Shown here one piece after another: positions 39,274-51,544 of a DNA stretch of 64,000 nucleotides. The stretch comes from Pelagomonas calceolata (lineage: Eukaryota): positions 5,642,001 through 5,706,000 of the forward strand of contig CAKKNE010000002.1 in NCBI GenBank assembly GCA_918797485.1. Direction: 5' to 3'. A program made the position numbers and the translations under genes. Position 1 is the stretch's first letter, and every line of letters starts with the position of its first letter. The notes below the pieces were generated by a model, which saw only the letters and a list, made by a program, of their open reading frames with translations, searched no databases and was not told where the DNA came from.

Positions 39274-42200
39274 TTACGCGCGAGCGCCGCAGGCGCTGCA
39301 GAACTGGCCCTGAACCGGGGCGCCGCAGGCGCTGCAGAAGTTGCGACCGGTCGGCGCCTCAGCAGCCGGCGCCCGCCAGGACGCCAGCCTCGACACCATG
39401 GAGGGGCGCTCCTGAGCCGGCTCTGGCGGCGGCGGCGGCATCAGCGGCGGCGCCGACGGGTCCGGTGCGGCATCTTTGAGCGCGCCCGACTCGACGGCCC
39501 CGGTTATTGTGCCTAGGACCTCCACTTCGGCCATCGGTGCCAAATCCGCGCTGTCCTTGGCGCGGCGCATGTACACGTACGCCCCGACGGCAATCGCGGC
39601 GATCACGGCGACGCCGGCGACCGTGCCCCCAATGAGCCCGGCCGACGCGGCGTCGGCGCCGCCGTTGCCGCCGCCGTCGCTTGGGGTAGCTTGGGAAATT
39701 GGAGCCGGAGTCGGAGTCGCCGTGGGGCCGCACTCCACCGGCAGCGCTGCGACGGCCGAGTCGCGTGTGACGGTGTAGAATATGTATCCTGGTGCGCCAC
39801 CGACTTCATGCATGCACTCGCAGTCGTTCTGGCAGTCGCAGCTGCCGTCGTCCCACCAGTCGATGGCCACGAGGTCGTCGCCGTATCCGTCCGAACACCT
39901 CTCCCAGCAGTCCGCCGGCGAGGCCGTGCAGCCTATTTGGTTGTTGAGATTCGAAAAGCACCACCCGCTCCCCGCTCCGTGGTTCGTTGTGCCGCTTGGA
40001 GAGGAATTGAGGTCGTTGGACGTCTCGATGTCGCATTCGTCGTCGTCGTCGTCGTCGTCCCCGTCGTCGTCCCCGTCGTCGTCGTCGTCGTCCTCCGAGC
40101 AGTCGTCGTACCAGCACTCGTTGAACTCCCCGTCGTCGTCGACGTTGCCGTCGAGGTCTTCGTCGTAGTACCAGGTATTCGTACCCGGCTCGCAGGTGAC
40201 TCGGCCGCCATAGTCGGCCGTTAAGTCGTGTGTCGTCGCGCAGTCGCACGATTGGCATCCAAAGCCCTGCATCACCGTTCCATCCTCTCGGCACTCTATC
40301 ACCTCAAAGCCCGGGGTGCAGTCGTCGTCGTCGTCCTCGTCGCCGTCCTCCTCGTCCTCCGAGCAGTCATCGTACCAGCAGTCGCCGAACTGCCCCTCGT
40401 GATCGACGTTGCCGTCGAGGTCTTCGTCGATATAAAAGGTATTCGTACCCGGATCGCAGGTGTATTGGCCGCCCGAATTGGTCGTTAGGTCGTCCATTTC
40501 GCAGTCGCACGAATCGCATTCGTCGTTGTGCATAAACGTCCCGTCGTCGAGGCACTCTGCCACCCCATAGCCCGGGGTGCAGTCGTCGTCCTCGTCGTCG
40601 TCGTCCTCCGAGCAGTCATCGTACCAGCACTCGCTGAACTCCCACGATTCGTCGGCGTTCCCGTCGAGGTCTTCGTCGTATAAAATGGTATTCGTACCCG
40701 GCTCGCAGGTGTATTGGCCGCTCGTCGCGGCCGTTAAATCTTCCACCGCTTCGCAGTCGCACGAATCGCACCCGCCGTCGCCGTTCGCCACTCTAGGGAA
40801 TCCTCGCATCAGCGTCCCGTCGTCTCGGCACTCTAGCACCCAAAAGCCCGGGGTGCAGTCTTCGTCGTCGTCCTCGTCGTAGTCTGAGCTGTAGCATGCC
40901 GATTTCAAGTCCGCGCAACAAGGATTACTTCCCCCAGCCATATAGTTCATGACGCCAGCCCGCGTGTTACCGTCGTACACTTCAGGATCTGCACATGCGG
41001 CCTGGATGGCCGAGTCGGAGCTCCAATCGATGGCGTTCATCTTTGCTTCGGCTCCAAGGAATCCATCGCATGTGTAGCCCGGGTAATTGGATGGGGCACC
41101 TCCATTGTACTGGCTCGGATTGAGGCAGAACTTGCTTCTATCGTAGCATTCTGCAACTTGTACGACGCCGCACGACGTCGACTGGCACGGCGTGCCGTTG
41201 AACGCGCCGTAGAGGTCCACGTCGTCGTCCGCGCACCAGCCGAGGTCCTGGTCGAAGGCTGAGGCGCCGTAGAACATCCAGAACATAGTCGTGACGCTGT
41301 CGATCGCCCAGTCACCGATGTCTTGATTAAACGCCAAGGCGCCGCCGAACACCCCGTACATCGATATGACGCCGGAGGTGTCCCACGCGCCGATGTCCCT
41401 GTTAAAGGACAAGGCTTCGATGAAAATCCCCTCCATCGTTGTGACCCCAGAGGTGTCCCACGCGCCGATGTCCTCGTTGAAGGACGCCGCGGCCGTGTTG
41501 CAGTAACCATTTCCTGAGTGGTCGGTTGAGGCCCCGCAAAACAAATACGACATGTCCGTCACCCCCCCAGTCGCCCACGTCGAGATATGACCGTACATCG
41601 CCTCGGCAGACGTGGCGTCTGAGAGCCACGCCGCGACGGCCGTTCTAATGTTGCTGTCGGTCATCACGTAGCCCGAGAGCACGCGCCGCTGCTCAAGGCT
41701 TTGGACTGACGAGCTCGGAGACTCGTTGGTCTTGATCTTGGAACTCTTTGTAATGGCGTAGTCGCTGCTGCCGCCCGAGAGCACGCGTCGCTGCTCAAGG
41801 CTTTGGACTGACGAGCTCGGAGACTCATTGGTCTTGATCTTGGAACTCTTCATAATGGTGTAGTCGCTGCCGCGGACCGAAGTCGCTGCCGCCGCCACGA
41901 GGGCGATCTCTGGCGAAATAAGCAGGTAGGCGGCGCCGTACGAGCGCCAGGCCGCGCCCTTCGCCGCGCTACTGCACCGCGGAATAACCCTTCCGAACAC
42001 GAAGAGTCCCAAAACAAGTTCTAGCAAAATCGCAAGAAACTGGAAGAGCCACCAGGAAGCCCGCCCTTCTTCTTCGTCGACGCCGCCCTTGGTCGCGTCC
42101 GGGGCCGCCAACATCAATTCGGCGGACACGTGGTTTTGGTAGAGCTGGAGCCGCGCCATCGTCGCGGCGACGCTCGTCGCCAAGCCCTTGGAGGCAGCGC

Positions 42201-42465
42201 GGTCGAGGCCGTTCTCGCCGGCCGGCGCACTCGTGCTGGCGCTTTTGTCGGACTTGCTGCCGTCGTACATGGTCATGGCCTCGGAGAAGCCAGCGAAATT
42301 CTCCCCGAGCCGGGAGCCGCTCAGGGAGCCGCCCTCGGGGCAGCCCTTCCAAGGTTTCAGGCAGCTGCTCAGAATGGAGCCGCGCGCGGGGGCCCGGAGC
42401 GGCAGCGCGCTGGTCAAGAAGAACAGCCCAAGGGCAGCTCTCACAAGGGCGCGCAGCATTTTCAA
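39274..42465 (-). CDS. DUF285 (BspA-like) repeat surface protein with three Cys/acidic modules, a TM helix and a Zn-ribbon tail
   Basis: YGHISTW.T.GVTDMS.LF and FN.DIG.WDTSGV repeats; three CTPG...CEPGTNT..YDEDLDGN.D...CWYDDCSED modules; TM helix; FCSACGA twice. Confidence 0.75.
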   Translation of the reverse strand: MKMLRALVRAALGLFFLTSALPLRAPARGSILSSCLKPWKGCPEGGSLSGSRLGENFAGFSEAMTMYDGSKSDKSASTSAPAGENGLDRAASKGLATSVAATMARLQLYQNHVSAELMLAAPDATKGGVDEEEGRASWWLFQFLAILLELVLGLFVFGRVIPRCSSAAKGAAWRSYGAAYLLISPEIALVAAAATSVRGSDYTIMKSSKIKTNESPSSSVQSLEQRRVLSGGSSDYAITKSSKIKTNESPSSSVQSLEQRRVLSGYVMTDSNIRTAVAAWLSDATSAEAMYGHISTWATGGVTDMSYLFCGASTDHSGNGYCNTAAASFNEDIGAWDTSGVTTMEGIFIEALSFNRDIGAWDTSGVISMYGVFGGALAFNQDIGDWAIDSVTTMFWMFYGASAFDQDLGWCADDDVDLYGAFNGTPCQSTSCGVVQVAECYDRSKFCLNPSQYNGGAPSNYPGYTCDGFLGAEAKMNAIDWSSDSAIQAACADPEVYDGNTRAGVMNYMAGGSNPCCADLKSACYSSDYDEDDDEDCTPGFWVLECRDDGTLMRGFPRVANGDGGCDSCDCEAVEDLTAATSGQYTCEPGTNTILYDEDLDGNADESWEFSECWYDDCSEDDDDEDDDCTPGYGVAECLDDGTFMHNDECDSCDCEMDDLTTNSGGQYTCDPGTNTFYIDEDLDGNVDHEGQFGDCWYDDCSEDEEDGDEDDDDDCTPGFEVIECREDGTVMQGFGCQSCDCATTHDLTADYGGRVTCEPGTNTWYYDEDLDGNVDDDGEFNECWYDDCSEDDDDDDGDDDGDDDDDDDECDIETSNDLNSSPSGTTNHGAGSGWCFSNLNNQIGCTASPADCWERCSDGYGDDLVAIDWWDDGSCDCQNDCECMHEVGGAPGYIFYTVTRDSAVAALPVECGPTATPTPAPISQATPSDGGGNGGADAASAGLIGGTVAGVAVIAAIAVGAYVYMRRAKDSADLAPMAEVEVLGTITGAVESGALKDAAPDPSAPPLMPPPPPEPAQERPSMVSRLASWRAPAAEAPTGRNFCSACGAPVQGQFCSACGARA
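41671..41870. repeat. 102-bp in-frame tandem duplication
   Basis: SDY.I.KSSKIKTNESPSSSVQSLEQRRVLSG is encoded twice. Confidence 0.9.
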
Positions 42466-45653: not shown

Positions 45654-47388
45654 ATGAGCTCATTCGGCGGTGCGCCGCCGCCTACACGCGCCCACAGCCC
45701 GCCGCGCAACGGCACGACGACGCCCACACCAAGAAGCCCTGCTGCGAAGCGCTACAAGAGCGACGGCGTCGGCGACGGCCCCGCGCCGCCGCGCGTCCGG
45801 ACGCCGACGCGGTCGCCGCGGCGCTCGAGCCAGGGGTCGCCGGCGCCGGGCCGCTCGCCCTCGGACCGCTTCATCCCCAACCGGACGAGCATGGACTTCG
45901 ACGAGGCCAATCATGCATTAAGTGTGGTCGCGTCACCCCAACGAAAGAAGGGCGACGACCCGGCGGCGAACGCCCGGCCCGTCGAGGTGGAGTTTCGGCG
46001 GGCCATGCGGTCCGCGCTGCTGCCGCGGTCGTCCGGCGGCGGTCGCCGGAGCTCCGGCGGCGCCGACTCGCCGCGAAGCCCCCCTCACTCCGCCTCAAAA
46101 ATATTCAGATTCGGCGCCGAGGTGCAGAACCGGCCCGACCGCTTCCGATCCGCGCTGGAAGTCATCGCGGACCCGCGCCAGGAGCCCGGCAACGACGCGC
46201 GGACGGCGGCTCTGGCGCGGCCCGTGCCCACCAAACCCTCTCGTATCCTCGACGCGCCGGACATCGTCGACGACTACTACCTCAATTTGTTGAGCTGGTC
46301 GTCGTCCAACGTGCTGGCCGTGGCCCTCGCGAACAACGTCTACCTTTGGAACGCGGCGACGAACGAAGTGTCGGAATTGTTACAGTTAGAACAGGGCGAC
46401 TGCGTCACGTCCGTGAGCTGGGCGCCGGGCGGGTCCCACCTGTGCGTGGGCACGGACAGCGCGGCGGTCCAGCTCTGGGACGCGTCGCGCATGGCGCTGG
46501 TCCGGTCGATGCGGGGCCACACGGCGCGCGTCGGGAGCCTGGCGTGGAATCCCGTGCGTTTTTGCGGCGTCCCCTTTTTTCCTTGCCCTTCGCGGCGATG
46601 GCGTCGACGCGACGTCGACCGACGCGGCGCCGGCCCCGGGGGCGCGGCTGCCCGAGATTACGCCATCGACGCGCCGCCGACGCGACGTCACACAGGTCTC
46701 GCGCTGCGTCAACAGCGGTTCTAGAGACGCTCTGGTCTTACAGCACGACGCGCGGGCGAGGCAACATCGGACGGCCACCCTAGTCGGCCACCAGCAGGAG
46801 GTCTGCGGCCTGTCGTGGTCCGCCGACGGCGCGACGCTCGCGTCAGGAGGCAACGAGAACTATCTATGTCTGTGGGACGCGGCGCGGTCGGGCCAGGCGC
46901 AGCCGAGCGAGTGCGCGCCGCGGGCCATCATGCGCCAGCACCAGGCCGCCGTCAAGGCGCTGAGCTGGTGCCCCATGCACCGCAACTTACTAGCTTCGGG
47001 CGGCGGGACTGCTGATAGGACGATAAAATTCTGGAACGCGCATACCGGTGCTATGTTACATTCCGTCGACACGGGCTCTCAAGTCTGCGCCTTGTTATGG
47101 AGCCGGCACCACAAGGAAATCGTGTCGTCGCACGGCTTTTCCCAGAATCAATTATGCTTGTGGCGCTACCCGTCGATGACGAAGCTCTGCGAGCTGACCG
47201 GGCATACGGCTAGAGTGTTGCATTTAGCCCAGTCGCCGGACGGCGAGACGGTGGTGTCCGCGGCGGCGGACGAGACGTTGAGATTTTGGTCCATCTTCGG
47301 CGGCGGGCCGACGTCGGCGGCGCGGCGCAAGGGCCGGATGCGGGACATGCGCTTGTCGTCGGTTGGGGGGGAGATGTCGATCCGGTAA
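45654..47388 (+). CDS. CDC20: APC/C activator CDC20/fizzy; intron 46554-46695
   Basis: C-box DRFIPNR, KILR-like KIFRF, RILDAP...DDYYLNLL.W, WD40 repeats and a terminal IR tail. Confidence 0.85.
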
Positions 47389-47479
47389 GATTCGCGTGTA
47401 TTTTTGTTTGTGGGGTCGCTTCAAATGTGTCTGGTGTCTAGCGTTCATAGACTTTTGGACTTTTCCGTTACAACATTAC

Positions 47480-48259
47480 CTAGCAGCTATCGTCGTGGTA
47501 CATCCAGCCCTCCTGCGGCTTGCCCGGCGCGGACGCGGCGTGCACCGCGTTGTCCTGCGGGATGCCCTTCGTCTTCGCGGACGAGAGCATCGAGAGGATG
47601 GATAAGGAGAGCTGCGCCACGGTGATCGTCGGCCGCCAGCCGTTGCCTAGGAGGTTCAGGCAGATGTCACCGTTCGTGTAGACGTGCGGGTGCCGCGGCG
47701 TCGGCTCCAGGAAATAACAACTCGGCGGGCTCGTCGGGTAGTCCGCGGGGAAACTCACGCGCAGCTTGTACTTTTCGCCAGCGAAAATAGTACCTTCCGC
47801 GCCCGTCATCGTCACGATCCAGACGTTCAAGTTCTTGCCGACGCTCACCTTGCAGCCGTCGGGCGGATTTTCGACGAAGTCGGTCAGCTCTCTCGAAATT
47901 CGCTGCGCCTGACGCTGGGCCGGGCTCGCGCGTGCCGGCGAGCGTCGCTTCTTCTTCGCTGCTACCTTTTTCTTCGTTGCAGGCGCGGTGTCCTCGTCTC
48001 CTCCGTCTTTGCCGAAGCCGAGCAGCCGCAACGTCATGCGCACCGTTTTGCGGATCACGCCAAAGAGGCGGGTCGCGAGGCTCCCGCCCCCACCGCCGTC
48101 GAGCAGTCCCGCCTTGGCCTCCGGCGCGAGCGATGTGGCGTTGGCGCCGCCGGAGACGCGTAGCGCCCTCGTGTGCATGGCACGGCGTGCTGGCGCGACG
48201 GCGACGGCGGTAGCCAAGATGGTGGCGAGTAGTGCGCCCGAGTGTCGTATGCGCTGCAT
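47480..48259 (-). CDS. UBE2W-like ubiquitin-conjugating enzyme with an N-terminal signal/transit-like extension
   Basis: HPHVYTNGDICL, SILSMLSS and the terminal W.YHDD.C are typical of UBE2W. First ATG at 48259. Confidence 0.8.
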   Translation of the reverse strand: MQRIRHSGALLATILATAVAVAPARRAMHTRALRVSGGANATSLAPEAKAGLLDGGGGGSLATRLFGVIRKTVRMTLRLLGFGKDGGDEDTAPATKKKVAAKKKRRSPARASPAQRQAQRISRELTDFVENPPDGCKVSVGKNLNVWIVTMTGAEGTIFAGEKYKLRVSFPADYPTSPPSCYFLEPTPRHPHVYTNGDICLNLLGNGWRPTITVAQLSLSILSMLSSAKTKGIPQDNAVHAASAPGKPQEGWMYHDDSC

Positions 48260-48431
48260 TCTGTGTCTGGACCTTGGAGTTGAGAGACACGCGGCCGAGT
48301 TGCAGGCAAGCGATTGGCGCTCAGTGGTGACAGCTCGCGGCGATTTTTTCGGCGATTTGCTGCGCTGAGTCAAGCCGGGCGTCTGACAGGGGATTTGGCA
48401 AGTTGAGGTGAAACTTGGCGTTTTTTGTTGG

Positions 48432-48459
48432 ATTTGACCCGGCGACTCGAGGGTCAAAT
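48432..48459. promoter_or_regulatory. Palindromic element upstream of the permuted tRNA
   Basis: ATTTGACCC-GGCGACTCGA-GGGTCAAAT, a perfect 9-bp inverted repeat. A related element lies at 49217-49239. Confidence 0.35.
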
Positions 48460-48534
48460 AAAAAAAAGAGGGTCATGAAAACGACGAATTCATAACACAA
48501 GCTTCGGCCAGCGGTAGCAGAGATGAACGCAGAA

Positions 48535-48687
48535 ATCGTGACCGGTATTAATTACCGGAGGCCTTGGTCGTGGGTTCGATCCCCAACGTTACGTAACGTG
48601 GATACACATCGGGTGCTTTACTGCCCGGTTACGTTTGCCCAAAAACGACAAACACCATTGCTCAGTCGGTAGAGCGCACGACTCTTA
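48535..48687 (+). tRNA. trnK-CUU: tRNA-Lys(CUU), circularly permuted (break 37/38) with three non-canonical introns
   Basis: Genomic order: nt38-43 at 48535-40; intron 48541-64; nt44-63 at 48565-84; intron 48585-605; nt64-73 at 48606-15; 7-nt linker 48616-22; nt1-9 at 48623-31; intron 48632-59; nt10-37 at 48660-87. Mature sequence GCCCGGTTAGCTCAGTCGGTAGAGCGCACGACTCTTAATCGTGTGGTCGTGGGTTCGATCCCCACATCGGGTG (73 nt) forms all four stems. Confidence 0.88.
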
Positions 48688-48698
48688 CTACGCGTTCA

Positions 48699-48717
48699 TT
48701 TTCTTTTTTTTTTTTTT
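48699..48717 (+). terminator. Pol III oligo-T terminator
   Basis: TTTTC(T)14 directly after the tRNA trailer. Confidence 0.8.
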
Positions 48718-48920
48718 GCCTTTCGTGTATCCTCATATTTTCCACGCTGGCAAATTTTGGGACTCATTGGACAAGGTGGGATCGCGAACGTGACTGTCTC
48801 GTCACGAGGGTGATTTTTTGTTTGGAGTGCTTGAACGGCAAGAGTGCAGCCGAGACGCCTCTCCGAAGCGTAGGAATGGCCCGCTAAACGCACGGTCCCT
48901 AAAAATGCAAACAAGCCCAG

Positions 48921-49200
48921 AAAAAGTGCCGGAACCGACACGGCTGCGAGGTCCGAACGGATTTTCGTAACCGAAGGAACTGAGCTACGAAACCGCCATC
49001 AGAGCTTCGCCCACGGTGTAGTGTGGTCATTAAATGCGCCCAGTGTCCCCAATGCGCAGCACGCGTCGGGAAGGGCTTGAACCGAGGACGGACCGCGGCC
49101 CGCGCCCTCGACAATGCGATCGAAGGTCCGTCTCCCCAGCACCACGGAGAGGTCCAGAGACGCTACAGACGCGTCGCGAGCGCCAAGAAGACTCCGACGG
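48921..49200 (-). ncRNA. Unidentified structured RNA candidate (Pol III-like)
   Basis: Many helices with G-U pairs on the minus strand; B-box GGTTCAAGCCC at 49073-83; GGTTTCGTAGCTCAGTT at 48978-94; terminal hairpin plus T5. Confidence 0.35.
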
Positions 49201-49313
49201 TCGGGTACCATAAAAATTGACAAGCCTCGAGTCTGTCAAAAAGCAGCCTAATTTTGGCAGCACAAATCAAAAGCAGCGCTCGACGAGAAGAGCATTGCTG
49301 CCAGCGAACAAAA

Positions 49314-51544
49314 ATGGACCTCGAGGACGCGCCACAAGAGGACCCCGATGCAGGGCTCAGCGTCGGCACGGTCCACGCCGCATTTATCCTAAGCGCCGCC
49401 GTCGCCGTGGCGCTAACCTTCGGCAAGGACCTCATCAAAGGCAAGCTCAGCACGAATTCTGACGTGGGCGGCCAGACGCCGCAGTTCAAAGCCTTCCAGC
49501 GGACGTACCTGACCGTCTACCTGCTCATGATGGCGGGCGACTGGCTCCAGGGGCCCTACATGTACGCGCTCTACGACGCCTACGGCTTCAAGCACGAGGA
49601 GATCGCGGCGCTGTTTGTTGCTGGTTTTTTTTCCGCGCGGACGTCAAATTTCAATCTCGTACGTGTGGAGTAGTCTCCGTCGAGAGAGTGTCGCGGCGAT
49701 GGCGTGCGGTTGGGGTGCCCCTCGATGACGGTGGCTCACCCGGTCGCATCGCGCGCCGGGAGGAGCAGAAAACTCACAAACGCCAGTTGGCGCCCGCCGG
49801 CGCGGCGTCGCGGCCGGGGCGCGCGGGATGCGCTCGGTTGCCGAAGGACCGCACGCACCGGGGCACGCGCCGGCGGGGCTCCGAGAGAGCGGGCGCGAGG
49901 CGGAGCGCGCCGAGGCGGGCGCGGCGGGCGCGGCACACACACGCAACACAGAGAACGGCGGTGACAACAAATCGCGGCGACGCGGCGCTGCGCGCGCCGG
50001 GCCTCTGCTGAGAGAACAACGAGAGGCCGCGTCGATGATGCGGAGAACACACACGTTGAGTCGCAAAAGCGACACAAAAAACAAGAGAAAAAACAAAACA
50101 CAGGCTTCGGCTCCTCCATGCTCTTCGGCACGGTCGCCGGCTCGCTCGCCGACACGCTCGGCCGCAAGCGCGGCGCGCTCGCCTACGTCGTCGTCTACGC
50201 GGCGTCGTGCGTGACGAAGCACTGGCGCTCCTACGAGGTCCTCATGTTCGGACGAGTCTTAGGCGGCATCGCCACGTCGCTGCTCTTCTCGGTCTTCGAC
50301 TCGTGGCTCGTGGCCGAGCACGCGAGCCGCGGCTTCGAGCCGGCGTGGCTCTCGACGACGTTTGCGAATGCGCAAGCGGGCAATAGTATCGTCGCGATCC
50401 TCTCGGGTGTATTCGGAGAGTGGATCGCGGGCACGACGCCGATGCGCGTGTTGGTGGCGGGAAGTACCGGAGGCGAGGACGCCGCGCCGGACGGCGCGAT
50501 CATGTGGGGCGGCTACTGCTTACCGTTTGACGCCGCCGCCGTCTTTTTGCTCATCGGCGGCTTCGTGATCATGACGACGTGGAACGAGAACTACGGGGAC
50601 ACGAAGCAGAGTTCGGGCGCGGATGGCCTCCGCGAGTCGCTCACCAAAGGACTTTTACTGTTGGCGAGGGACCGCCGCGTGCTACTCGTGGGCCTGGTCT
50701 GCTCGTGCTTCGAGGCGGCCATGTACGCCTTCGTGTTCGAGTGGACGCCGGCGCTGACGGCGGCGAACGCGCCGCGGTGACGCACGCGGCGTCGCGAGAG
50801 TGCCTTCAAAGTCGGCTCGACGGCCAATGGCGGGTCGCGGCGATGGCGTACTCGTGGATTATTGGTACTCGAGGACGCATCCGTGCATCCGTCGAGAGTA
50901 TCGCGGCGATGCCATGCCACGGTGGGGTAGAAGTACTCGCGATGCCATGCCACGCCGCCACCCCGGAACCCAACGACGCGGACGCGGCGCGCCCAGAGAG
51001 GCCATCGCGTCGCACCCCGGGAAAGGAAAAAAAAAAAACTCACAGAAATAACAAACACAGGCCGCCGTACGGCGAGATCTTCGCGGCGATGATGCTCTGC
51101 TGCGCGGCGGGCACGCGCTTATTCGGCTTCCTCGCGGAGAGCCGGGGCCCGGAGGACTTCGCGCGGCCGCTGTTTGTGGTCGCGTCTCTATTTCTACTGG
51201 CGCCCGTCGTCGCGCCGTCGAACTACGTGCTCGCATTAGTAGCCTTCCTGCTCTTCGAGGGCGTCGTGGGCTGCTACTTCCCAGCGCTGGGCACGCTCAA
51301 GTCCAAGATTGTCCCGGACGCGCAGCGGTCGACGATCTACAACATCTTCCGCGTGCCACTGAACGTCCTCGTGCTGCTCGTATTACTGTCGAAGCTGCCG
51401 ACGCAGACCGTGTTTGCGGTGTCGGCGTTACTATTACTGTCGGCGGCCATATTGCAACACATGCTCTTCGCGGCGATGCGCGGCCACGCGGACGTGCTCG
51501 ACGCGCACGGCGTCGACGCCAAGGACCCGCTCGTGTCGGTGTAG
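49314..51544 (+). CDS. MFSD5: MFSD5-like molybdate-anion/MFS transporter; introns 49624-50103 and 50777-51060
   Basis: FQRTYL.VY...GDWLQGPY.YALY..YG, LFVAG|F.SS, GR.LGGIATSLLFS.F.SW, FVFEWTP and IYNIFRVPLN. Confidence 0.85.

Follow-up and report, generated by a model that had tools for sequence, protein, structure and literature searches.

Circularly permuted tRNA genes were compiled in Table 1 of PMC3978253 (2014), which covers Cyanidioschyzon merolae, four prasinophytes, the Bigelowiella natans nucleomorph and Thermofilum pendens, 34 genes by the paper's own count. The intervening sequences in this table span 1–74 nt. Seven of the genes carry an intron, one each; none in the table is a tRNA-Lys(CUU), the only lysine entry being a type IV Lys(TTT), and none comes from a stramenopile. 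For C. merolae, a red alga, a large share of the tRNA genes is disrupted, no Sen15 was found and removal is ordered, with the 37/38 site processed last (PMC3728597; PMC3978253). Its permuted tRNA-Gly(CCC) has a type II junction at 37/38, a 7-nt intervening sequence and one T-loop intron at 55/56 (PMC3728597; PMC3978253, Table 1).

Three introns in a single eukaryotic tRNA gene have been described for C. merolae tRNA-Ile(UAU) (PMC3728597) and for the Guillardia theta nucleomorph (PMC4090602), and ordered removal is expected for the three-intron genes of both, as for the gene described below. In C. merolae such genes are collinear; each of the three introns of tRNA-Ile(UAU) shows an hBHBh′ motif, including an intron at 37/38 (PMC3728597). 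Type II permuted genes of Ostreococcus, Micromonas, the B. natans nucleomorph and Auxenochlorella combine a 37/38 permutation, an hBH-like junction and a short spacer, and these lineages have almost no ectopic introns, with one at 27/28 in O. lucimarinus tRNA-Ser (PMC3978253; PMC12633428). In Thermoproteales and Asgard archaea, tRNA genes with up to three scattered introns and with HBh′ and relaxed motifs are cut by relaxed (alpha-beta)2-type endonucleases (PMC4090602; PMC4033280; 10.64898/2026.10.13.758758). Ectopic introns in the nuclear tRNA genes of a free-living alga, missed by tRNAscan-SE, are known from Chondrus crispus, where they are fixed at 20/21 or 58/59, number at most two per gene and occur without permutation (PlantRNA 2.0, 10.1101/2021.12.21.473619). 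For such layouts, the available sections of a 2026 review (PMC13578239) name only red and green algae, with nucleomorphs in a figure legend. Among the literature matches listed, no permuted or ectopic-intron nuclear tRNA gene was found for pelagophytes; subscription papers, tRNA databases and the PlantRNA species table lay outside the scope of this search. In two pelagophyte genome texts the word 'tRNA' is absent, in a third it stands only for a tRNAscan-SE count of 123, and neither Sen15 nor Sen54 occurs among the stramenopile literature matches listed.

Here we describe a permuted tRNA gene of the pelagophyte Pelagomonas calceolata, found in a 64-kb stretch of genomic DNA (the whole stretch analysed, called the window). 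The circularly permuted tRNA-Lys(CUU) gene was recognised by reading the sequence at 48535–48687 on the plus strand, where five pieces are arranged in the order 38–43, 44–63, 64–73, a 7-nt spacer, 1–9 and 10–37, followed by runs of four and 14 T. The 3′ half comes first, with positions 38–73 at 48535–48615 and positions 1–37 at 48623–48687, both on the plus strand. Numbering follows the general tRNA convention. The parts of the gene are as follows:

48535–48540, plus strand: exon, tRNA positions 38–43, 3′ side of the anticodon loop and stem (ARAGORN on the joined pieces, homology)
48541–48564, plus strand: intron 43/44, 24 nt; 1 nt + 6-bp hairpin CCGGTA/TACCGG + 6 nt; 'no H' type
48565–48584, plus strand: exon, tRNA positions 44–63, variable loop and T-arm with intact B box (homology; nhmmer E 0.0083)
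48585–48605, plus strand: intron 63/64, 21 nt; 1 nt + 5-bp hairpin ACGTT/AACGT + 6 nt; HBh′
48606–48615, plus strand: exon, tRNA positions 64–73, 3′ end of the T-stem, 3′ strand of the acceptor stem and G73 (positions 61–73 identical to the intact homolog L135)
48616–48622, plus strand: intervening sequence, 7 nt, linking position 73 to position 1
48623–48631, plus strand: exon, tRNA positions 1–9, 5′ strand of the acceptor stem, U8 and A9 (ARAGORN, homology)
48632–48659, plus strand: intron 9/10, 28 nt, interrupting the A box; 1 nt + 5-bp hairpin GTTTG/CAAAC + 6 nt; relaxed
48660–48687, plus strand: exon, tRNA positions 10–37, D-arm, 5′ strand of the anticodon stem and anticodon CTT (blastn with the intact homolog as query, E 1.3e-8; nhmmer E 1.1e-4)

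For the pieces joined in tRNA order, ARAGORN calls a 73-nt tRNA-Lys(ctt) that folds into a normal cloverleaf, also at thresholds raised to 105, 110 and 115%. The acceptor stem is weakened by G1-U72 and G6-U67, and no CCA is encoded after the discriminator G73. Of the positions generally conserved in tRNAs, U8, A14, G18-G19, U33, A37, U54-U55-C56 and A58 are all present; that all of them are kept argues for selection on the mature product. The gene lies in a low-GC gap between a ubiquitin-conjugating enzyme gene on the left (47480–48259, minus strand; Pfam UQ_con) and a plus-strand transporter gene on the right (MFS_5). Codons for AAG outnumber those for AAA by 103 to 31 in the 3,913 codons of eight open reading frames of the window, so a CUU decoder is in demand. 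When the window was scanned with a profile built from 196 tRNAs, a second tRNA-like locus was not found, and only the two pieces of this gene scored at E < 0.3.

A neighbouring protein of 211 aa has 55 matches at E up to 1e-10; among the named ones, Pelagophyceae sp. CCMP2097 and Chrysophaeum taylorii come first, both at 61%, followed by oomycetes and brown algae, which makes a pelagophyte host likely at class level. The window's proteins are present in NCBI and marine metagenome sets, and the stretch itself occurs in marine metatranscriptomes, among others. An open reading frame of 1,061 aa (39274–42459, minus strand) encodes a DUF285 domain and also contains a direct repeat of ~40 residues within the protein, as well as several repeats rich in Cys and Asp.

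Intact homologs were used to fix the junctions. Three public-contig loci (L135, L147 and L146) have a matching D-arm-to-anticodon stretch, and a fourth, L003, was the best among the first 123 loci listed. Their intact tRNA-Lys(CTT) genes are identical to the joined tRNA at 68/73 (L135, a viral contig), 67/73 (L147), 59/73 (L146) and 66/73 (L003) positions. Each intron was slid from −4 to +4 against L135, L147 and L003, which gave a unique optimum at 9/10 and at 43/44. The 63/64 junction ties with the sequence-equivalent 62/63 and 64/65, among which the geometry picks 63/64, and the 37/38 optimum ties with 36/37 because an A repeats there. A 44/45 junction, which would give A44, scored below 43/44 against all three homologs, breaks the spacing and was rejected. 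The initial annotation had placed all three introns at these coordinates and with these motifs, and both stand as written; it makes no mention of the circular permutation. As the 9/10 and 43/44 junctions are fixed without reference to the hairpins, the test of hairpin geometry given below is post hoc yet not circular for these two introns.

The unusual U72 and G73 of the joined tRNA are also found in L135 and L147. In L135 (265–421, minus strand), an AT-rich viral contig, the intact tRNA-Lys(CTT) stands right behind a tRNA-Leu(TAA); the source may be a virus of a related alga. L147 (291–569) is a 3-kb contig in a bacterial metagenome-assembled genome (Oceaniferula sp.) with eukaryote-type tRNA genes for Lys, lacking CCA, for Gly, and for Tyr with a 24-nt intron, and is probably misbinned eukaryotic or giant-virus DNA.

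All three introns had been proposed to share one geometry (1 nt, a hairpin and 6 nt), which is borne out by hairpins of 6, 5 and 5 bp at offset (1,6) in 43/44, 63/64 and 9/10. Bulge-helix-bulge (BHB) spacing consists of a 3-nt bulge, a 4-nt helix strand and a 3-nt bulge around the intron hairpin. Among the 66 offsets tried, (1,6) gives the longest helix in all three introns, and the pair just outside each hairpin is a mismatch in all three. In 200,000 mononucleotide shuffles per intron, at least five Watson-Crick pairs at exactly (1,6) arise with P = 1.2e-3 (43/44), 1.3e-3 (63/64) and 4.1e-4 (9/10); if offsets of ±1 are allowed, P rises to 1.1e-2, 9.4e-3 and 2.7e-3, respectively, with a product of ~3e-7. 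The test is post hoc, though the pattern it looks for is BHB spacing as already known. A rough comparison from outside the gene comes from 50 viral stretches that follow a T-arm and are of about the same length, none of which had four or more pairs at (1,6). A perfect palindrome of 14 nt forms the hairpin of intron 63/64 (48586–48599), and the last 6 nt of intron 43/44 (48559–48564) are palindromic too.

The quality of the splice motifs differs from site to site. We assigned motif classes (hBHBh′, HBh′, relaxed) as encoded in section 4.8 of 10.64898/2026.10.13.758758. Intron 63/64 has a complete central helix (ATCC/GGAT, 4/4 pairs), bulges CC^A and AC^A and an outer helix of one pair, which makes it HBh′. 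Intron 9/10 has three of four central pairs (GGT/ACC), bulge TA^C and no outer pair, and is relaxed. Intron 43/44 has two of four central pairs, one Watson-Crick and one G-U, and no outer pair; it is not BHB-like and falls into the 'no H' type. The intron helix h′, by definition at least two pairs at the 1/6 spacing, is present in all three, with 6, 5 and 5 Watson-Crick pairs. A strict hBHBh′ gene would have a 4-bp central helix at each intron and an outer helix of at least two pairs, and none of the three introns is of this kind. Thus the earlier description of 63/64 as a strict BHB was right about the central helix and the bulges and wrong about 'strict', which is ruled out by an outer helix of a single pair. 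The wider claim of BHB-type signals survives in part: these are tRNA introns with BHB spacing, beyond the reach of a 37/38 ruler; one of the three has all four central pairs, and a strict hBHBh′ motif is seen at none of them.

When the introns were placed at the 57 other boundaries of the mature tRNA model, the observed central pairing was reached at one of them for 63/64, at six for 9/10 and at 30 for 43/44. By this measure, the central helix fits its site at 63/64, is suggestive at 9/10 and does no better than chance at 43/44, where the initial annotation had rightly called it weak. Over the three introns together, Watson-Crick pairs make up eight of the 12 central ones (binomial P = 0.003 at p = 0.25), and the local energy gain from the central helix is −3.1 kcal/mol for 63/64, −1.8 for 9/10 and +3.3 for 43/44. 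In both weak introns, 9/10 and 43/44, the pair beside the 3′ bulge is broken. In the canonical eukaryotic motif, it is the 3′ bulge, together with the pair next to it, that is well formed, and the human tRNA-splicing endonuclease (TSEN) relies on both (10.1101/2022.09.02.506201). The two weak introns are thus a mirror image of that motif.

To see how these motifs relate to the folded RNA, a precursor spanning 48505–48708 was modelled in eight splicing states at 20 and 37 °C. In the precursor fold predicted at 37 °C, the mean pair probability of the hairpins is 1.00 for 43/44, 0.71 for 63/64 and 0.17 for 9/10, and over the splicing states it ranges over 0.99–1.00 for 43/44 and 0.13–0.34 for 9/10. 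The central helices are predicted at 0.00 (43/44), 0.35 (63/64) and 0.00 (9/10) in the precursor. Over the states, that of 63/64 varies between 0.15 and 0.48, that of 43/44 stays at 0.00 in all four states containing the intron, and that of 9/10 reaches at most 0.07 in any state, with the acceptor stem predicted at 0.71–0.95 while intron 9/10 is retained. In this model, the weak motifs at 9/10 and 43/44 are not favoured folds. The precursor has a predicted acceptor stem of 0.90 and a helix between leader and trailer of 0.98. Giving acceptor positions 5–7 to the tail of intron 9/10 costs 2.1 kcal/mol (−11.4 to −9.3).

The splice helices had been suggested to compete with the mature stems, and the model agrees: the T-stem is predicted at 0.01 with intron 63/64 in place and at 0.90 after its removal, which also raises the anticodon stem to 0.81. 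The predictions thus support competition and an order in which 63/64 goes first. The whole precursor is no more stable than its shuffles (z −1.64; 13 of 200 as good), and its stability was dropped as evidence. Leader bases 48506–48511 are, by eye, complementary with one G-U to 48565–48570 (tRNA positions 44–49), directly behind the 3′ cut of intron 43/44, the weakest splice site; this could be chance or an alternative fold at that site.

The flanks of the gene and the permutation junction hold further elements:

48456–48467, plus strand: A/T-rich stretch ~70–80 nt upstream of the first exon; candidate Pol III promoter element (sequence, analogy)
48523–48530, plus strand: leader strand of an 8-bp leader/trailer helix, pairing with 48692–48699 (eight Watson-Crick pairs)
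48529–48534, plus strand: last six leader nucleotides at the permutation junction, with the 3′ cut before A38 (pairing on paper)
48692–48699, plus strand: trailer strand of the leader/trailer helix (eight Watson-Crick pairs)
48704–48717, plus strand: run of 14 T, after the run of four at 48699–48702; likely Pol III terminator

The leader/trailer helix has a predicted mean pair probability of 0.98 in all eight splicing states at both 20 and 37 °C, and would bring the precursor ends together at the 37/38 junction. Possible pairs at this junction are G(−3) with C32, which is the anticodon-intron pair, A(−4) with U33, and G(−6) with U35. On paper, this amounts to three of four central pairs with the 5-bp anticodon stem as the outer helix; the C32 and U33 anticodon-intron pairs themselves are predicted at a probability of 0.00–0.01. 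The leader/trailer helix stands at offsets of 4/4, unlike the 1/6 of the introns. By these possible pairs, the 37/38 junction would follow the canonical eukaryotic type, unlike the two weak introns at 9/10 and 43/44.

Algal permuted tRNA genes have upstream TATA-like or AT-rich elements (PMC3978253, section 5). At the Pelagomonas gene, the B box precedes the A box and an intron splits the A box, from which we infer a Pol III start at an upstream element. The run of 14 T is one of four runs of at least eight T on the plus strand of the window. Reads of the minus-strand ubiquitin-conjugating gene end near 48421–48442, which would put the start of that gene and the presumed upstream element in one divergent gap of ~100 nt.

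RNA and further DNA sources were searched for traces of processing and for orthologs. In four poly(A) raw-read runs of one sample, of which ~6–12% each was read and whose libraries are ill-suited to tRNA, no spliced, partly spliced or circular joint was found. Reads over the gene occur in one of the four runs, unspliced and at a depth of up to 4, and are antisense, as their mate orientation matches the mRNA of the minus-strand neighbour. Such low-level minus-strand reads cross the tRNA gene and the region to its right (48505–49000), where no open reading frame of 120 aa or more overlaps them. The T14 run is an A14 run on the minus strand, which may explain their capture. Spliced joints were likewise absent from three RNA contig sets: one (X6) holds a single unspliced, unstranded contig of 185 nt at 48505–48688, and the other two (X10, X17) do not cover the gene.

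The permuted-Lys pattern had no match in metagenome contigs, and among the matches listed for relatives of the neighbouring ubiquitin-conjugating gene (at least 11), none of 11 loci had a tRNA or tRNA fragment; two of the loci (L131, L132) were also inspected by eye. In viral contigs, the permuted pattern occurs at three loci, none with an insert at 9/10. The 9/10-insert pattern was found at ten loci, all with a collinear tRNA call, and the 63/64-insert pattern at 50 loci, none of which (0/50) has a hairpin of at least four pairs at (1,6). Overall, the scans of metagenome, viral and prokaryote contigs returned no ortholog.

Compared with the described systems, the Pelagomonas gene is most readily set beside the permuted genes of C. 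merolae, tRNA-Gly(CCC) in particular. With these it has in common the 3′ half in front, the 37/38 permutation, a 7-nt spacer (within the span of Table 1 of PMC3978253), BHB-spaced ectopic introns, inverted A and B boxes and a T-stretch, and motif classes from HBh′ to 'no H' occur in both (PMC3728597). It also has a trait of the C. merolae type, more than one intron outside 37/38 in a single nuclear tRNA gene, here at 9/10, 43/44 and 63/64. Unlike the C. merolae permuted genes, it has three introns instead of one, in both halves, and belongs to a stramenopile and not to a red alga; expression has been shown for the C. merolae genes. In contrast to tRNA-Ile(UAU), it has only non-canonical introns without a strict motif among them, and its permutation junction occupies 37/38. 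It resembles the multi-intron archaeal genes in its scattered introns and their motifs, and differs from them in being a eukaryotic nuclear gene with eukaryotic protein-gene flanks and a eukaryote-type tRNA-Lys body. The type II genes of prasinophytes, the B. natans nucleomorph and Auxenochlorella match it in the 37/38 permutation and the short spacer; since those lineages have almost no ectopic introns, a standard ruler enzyme suffices for them, and the three introns here need more. What stands out is the presence of three ectopic introns on top of the permutation.

This bears on the enzyme. The initial annotation had set a ruler-independent endonuclease of this lineage against a typical eukaryotic TSEN that measures to 37/38. 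That contrast was too sharp, as eukaryotic TSEN can cut a universal BHB outside tRNA (10.1101/2022.09.02.506201). Since the remainder of the tRNA is dispensable for this, 63/64 taken by itself calls for nothing unusual in the enzyme, and it is 9/10 and 43/44 that argue for relaxed specificity. For these two introns, a ruler-independent endonuclease is likely; for 63/64 it is not needed. Our best reading of the comparison is a TSEN with relaxed, position-independent cutting, as in C. merolae.

We consider it likely that this is a working permuted gene of five pieces with three hairpin introns, matured by a route of the C. merolae type. The DNA itself shows the order of the pieces, their junctions, the 1 + hairpin + 6 spacing, the T-run and a leader/trailer helix, and each maturation step proposed beyond this layout is modelled on precedent (PMC3728597; PMC3978253). 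One precursor would be transcribed by RNA polymerase III from an upstream element. Judging from the folding model, the first intron to go would probably be 63/64, the one whose central helix is complete, whereupon the T-stem and the anticodon stem could form. Introns 9/10 and 43/44 would follow, as sites of relaxed HBh′ or 'no H' type that are marked chiefly by their hairpins; at 9/10, the tail of the intron would take the place of acceptor positions 66–68 at a predicted cost of ~2 kcal/mol. The ends would be cut and joined at 37/38 through the canonical-looking BHL junction, probably last, to give a circle. As proposed for C. merolae, RNase P and tRNase Z would open this circle at its 7-nt spacer, and the tRNA would receive its CCA. 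Both the pathway and an order of lowest energy first and 37/38 last have a precedent (PMC3728597; PMC3978253, section 7).

The meaning of the shared spacing can be read differently. It may be a fossil of how the introns arrived and not a current recognition rule, a tenable reading to which we give somewhat more than one chance in three. A piece excised from a BHB consists of 1 nt, a hairpin, 4 nt and 2 nt, and would have kept this form on re-insertion; the central helix would match only by chance or later adaptation, and the weak sites would be cut by relaxed activity of the enzyme. This account is compatible with a working gene and differs only in what the geometry means. It would explain why the hairpin is perfect in all three introns while the central helix falls from 4/4 to 3/4 and 2/4 and the outer helix has 1, 0 and 0 pairs, and intron transposition between tRNA genes is known in Thermoproteales (PMC4090602). 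Set against it are the enrichment of central helices at 63/64 and 9/10 (one and six of 57 boundaries), the lack of obvious sequence likeness among the three introns by eye, and their perfect hairpin ends, which in three unrelated sequences suggest continuing selection. The abstract of 10.64898/2026.10.13.758758 also reports no general copying route in Asgard archaea. We find it unlikely that an ordinary four-subunit TSEN of unchanged specificity cuts 63/64, after which refolding or helper proteins present the other sites. The canonical C32:G anticodon-intron pair at the 37/38 junction fits such an enzyme; 43/44 and 9/10, which have neither the pair beside the 3′ bulge nor an outer helix, do not, and in the model no splicing state restores the 43/44 helix (0.00 in all four). 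At a similarly low level of belief, pelagophytes may have independently evolved an endonuclease that places both cuts from the intron hairpin, 1 nt in front of it and 6 nt behind it, without central helix or tRNA body; introns could thereby have spread to any position, and much of the tRNA set of these algae, which are abundant in the sea, would be hidden in scrambled multi-intron genes missed by standard annotation.

The gene might also be dead or dying, once spliced, with a decayed 43/44 motif and no mature tRNA made. The missing sense-strand or spliced RNA in the poly(A) reads and RNA contigs, the chance-level central helix of 43/44 and the two G-U pairs of the acceptor stem would all agree with this. 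Poly(A) libraries, however, do not capture tRNA, C. merolae precursors are invisible even on northern blots, and 'no H' introns are spliced in C. merolae (PMC3728597). As all 73 exon positions give a normal cloverleaf, U72 and G73 are as in L135 and L147, and the three hairpins, the leader/trailer helix and the T-run are intact, we regard decay as quite improbable. A chance arrangement or assembly artefact has a practically negligible probability. In its favour, ARAGORN reports no tRNA gene in the 64-kb window and Rfam has no match at E up to 1 within 46000–51000; both tools, however, expect collinear genes. The permuted-tRNA pattern occurs once in the window and in none of 100 shuffles, and the locus is carried without difference by RNA contig X6 and by a contig of DNA run X5, the one other DNA source compared, which is identical over 48346–48950. 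A working gene processed along the C. merolae route thus remains the preferred reading.

If the gene is expressed, a single 73-nt tRNA needs four cut-and-join events plus the re-opening of a circle, more than any permuted gene in Table 1 of PMC3978253, where each has at most one intron. One short precursor would offer a graded series of splice sites (HBh′, relaxed, 'no H' and canonical BHL) for testing what eukaryotic TSEN reads. That neither ARAGORN nor Rfam picks up this gene is a warning that the tRNAs of these algae may have been undercounted. The gene also bears on the origin of ectopic tRNA introns, for which section 9 of PMC13578239 calls the choice between ancestral, convergent and transferred unresolved. 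If it is expressed, archaea-like splicing of ectopic tRNA introns would reach beyond red algae and nucleomorphs and include a stramenopile alga's nucleus.
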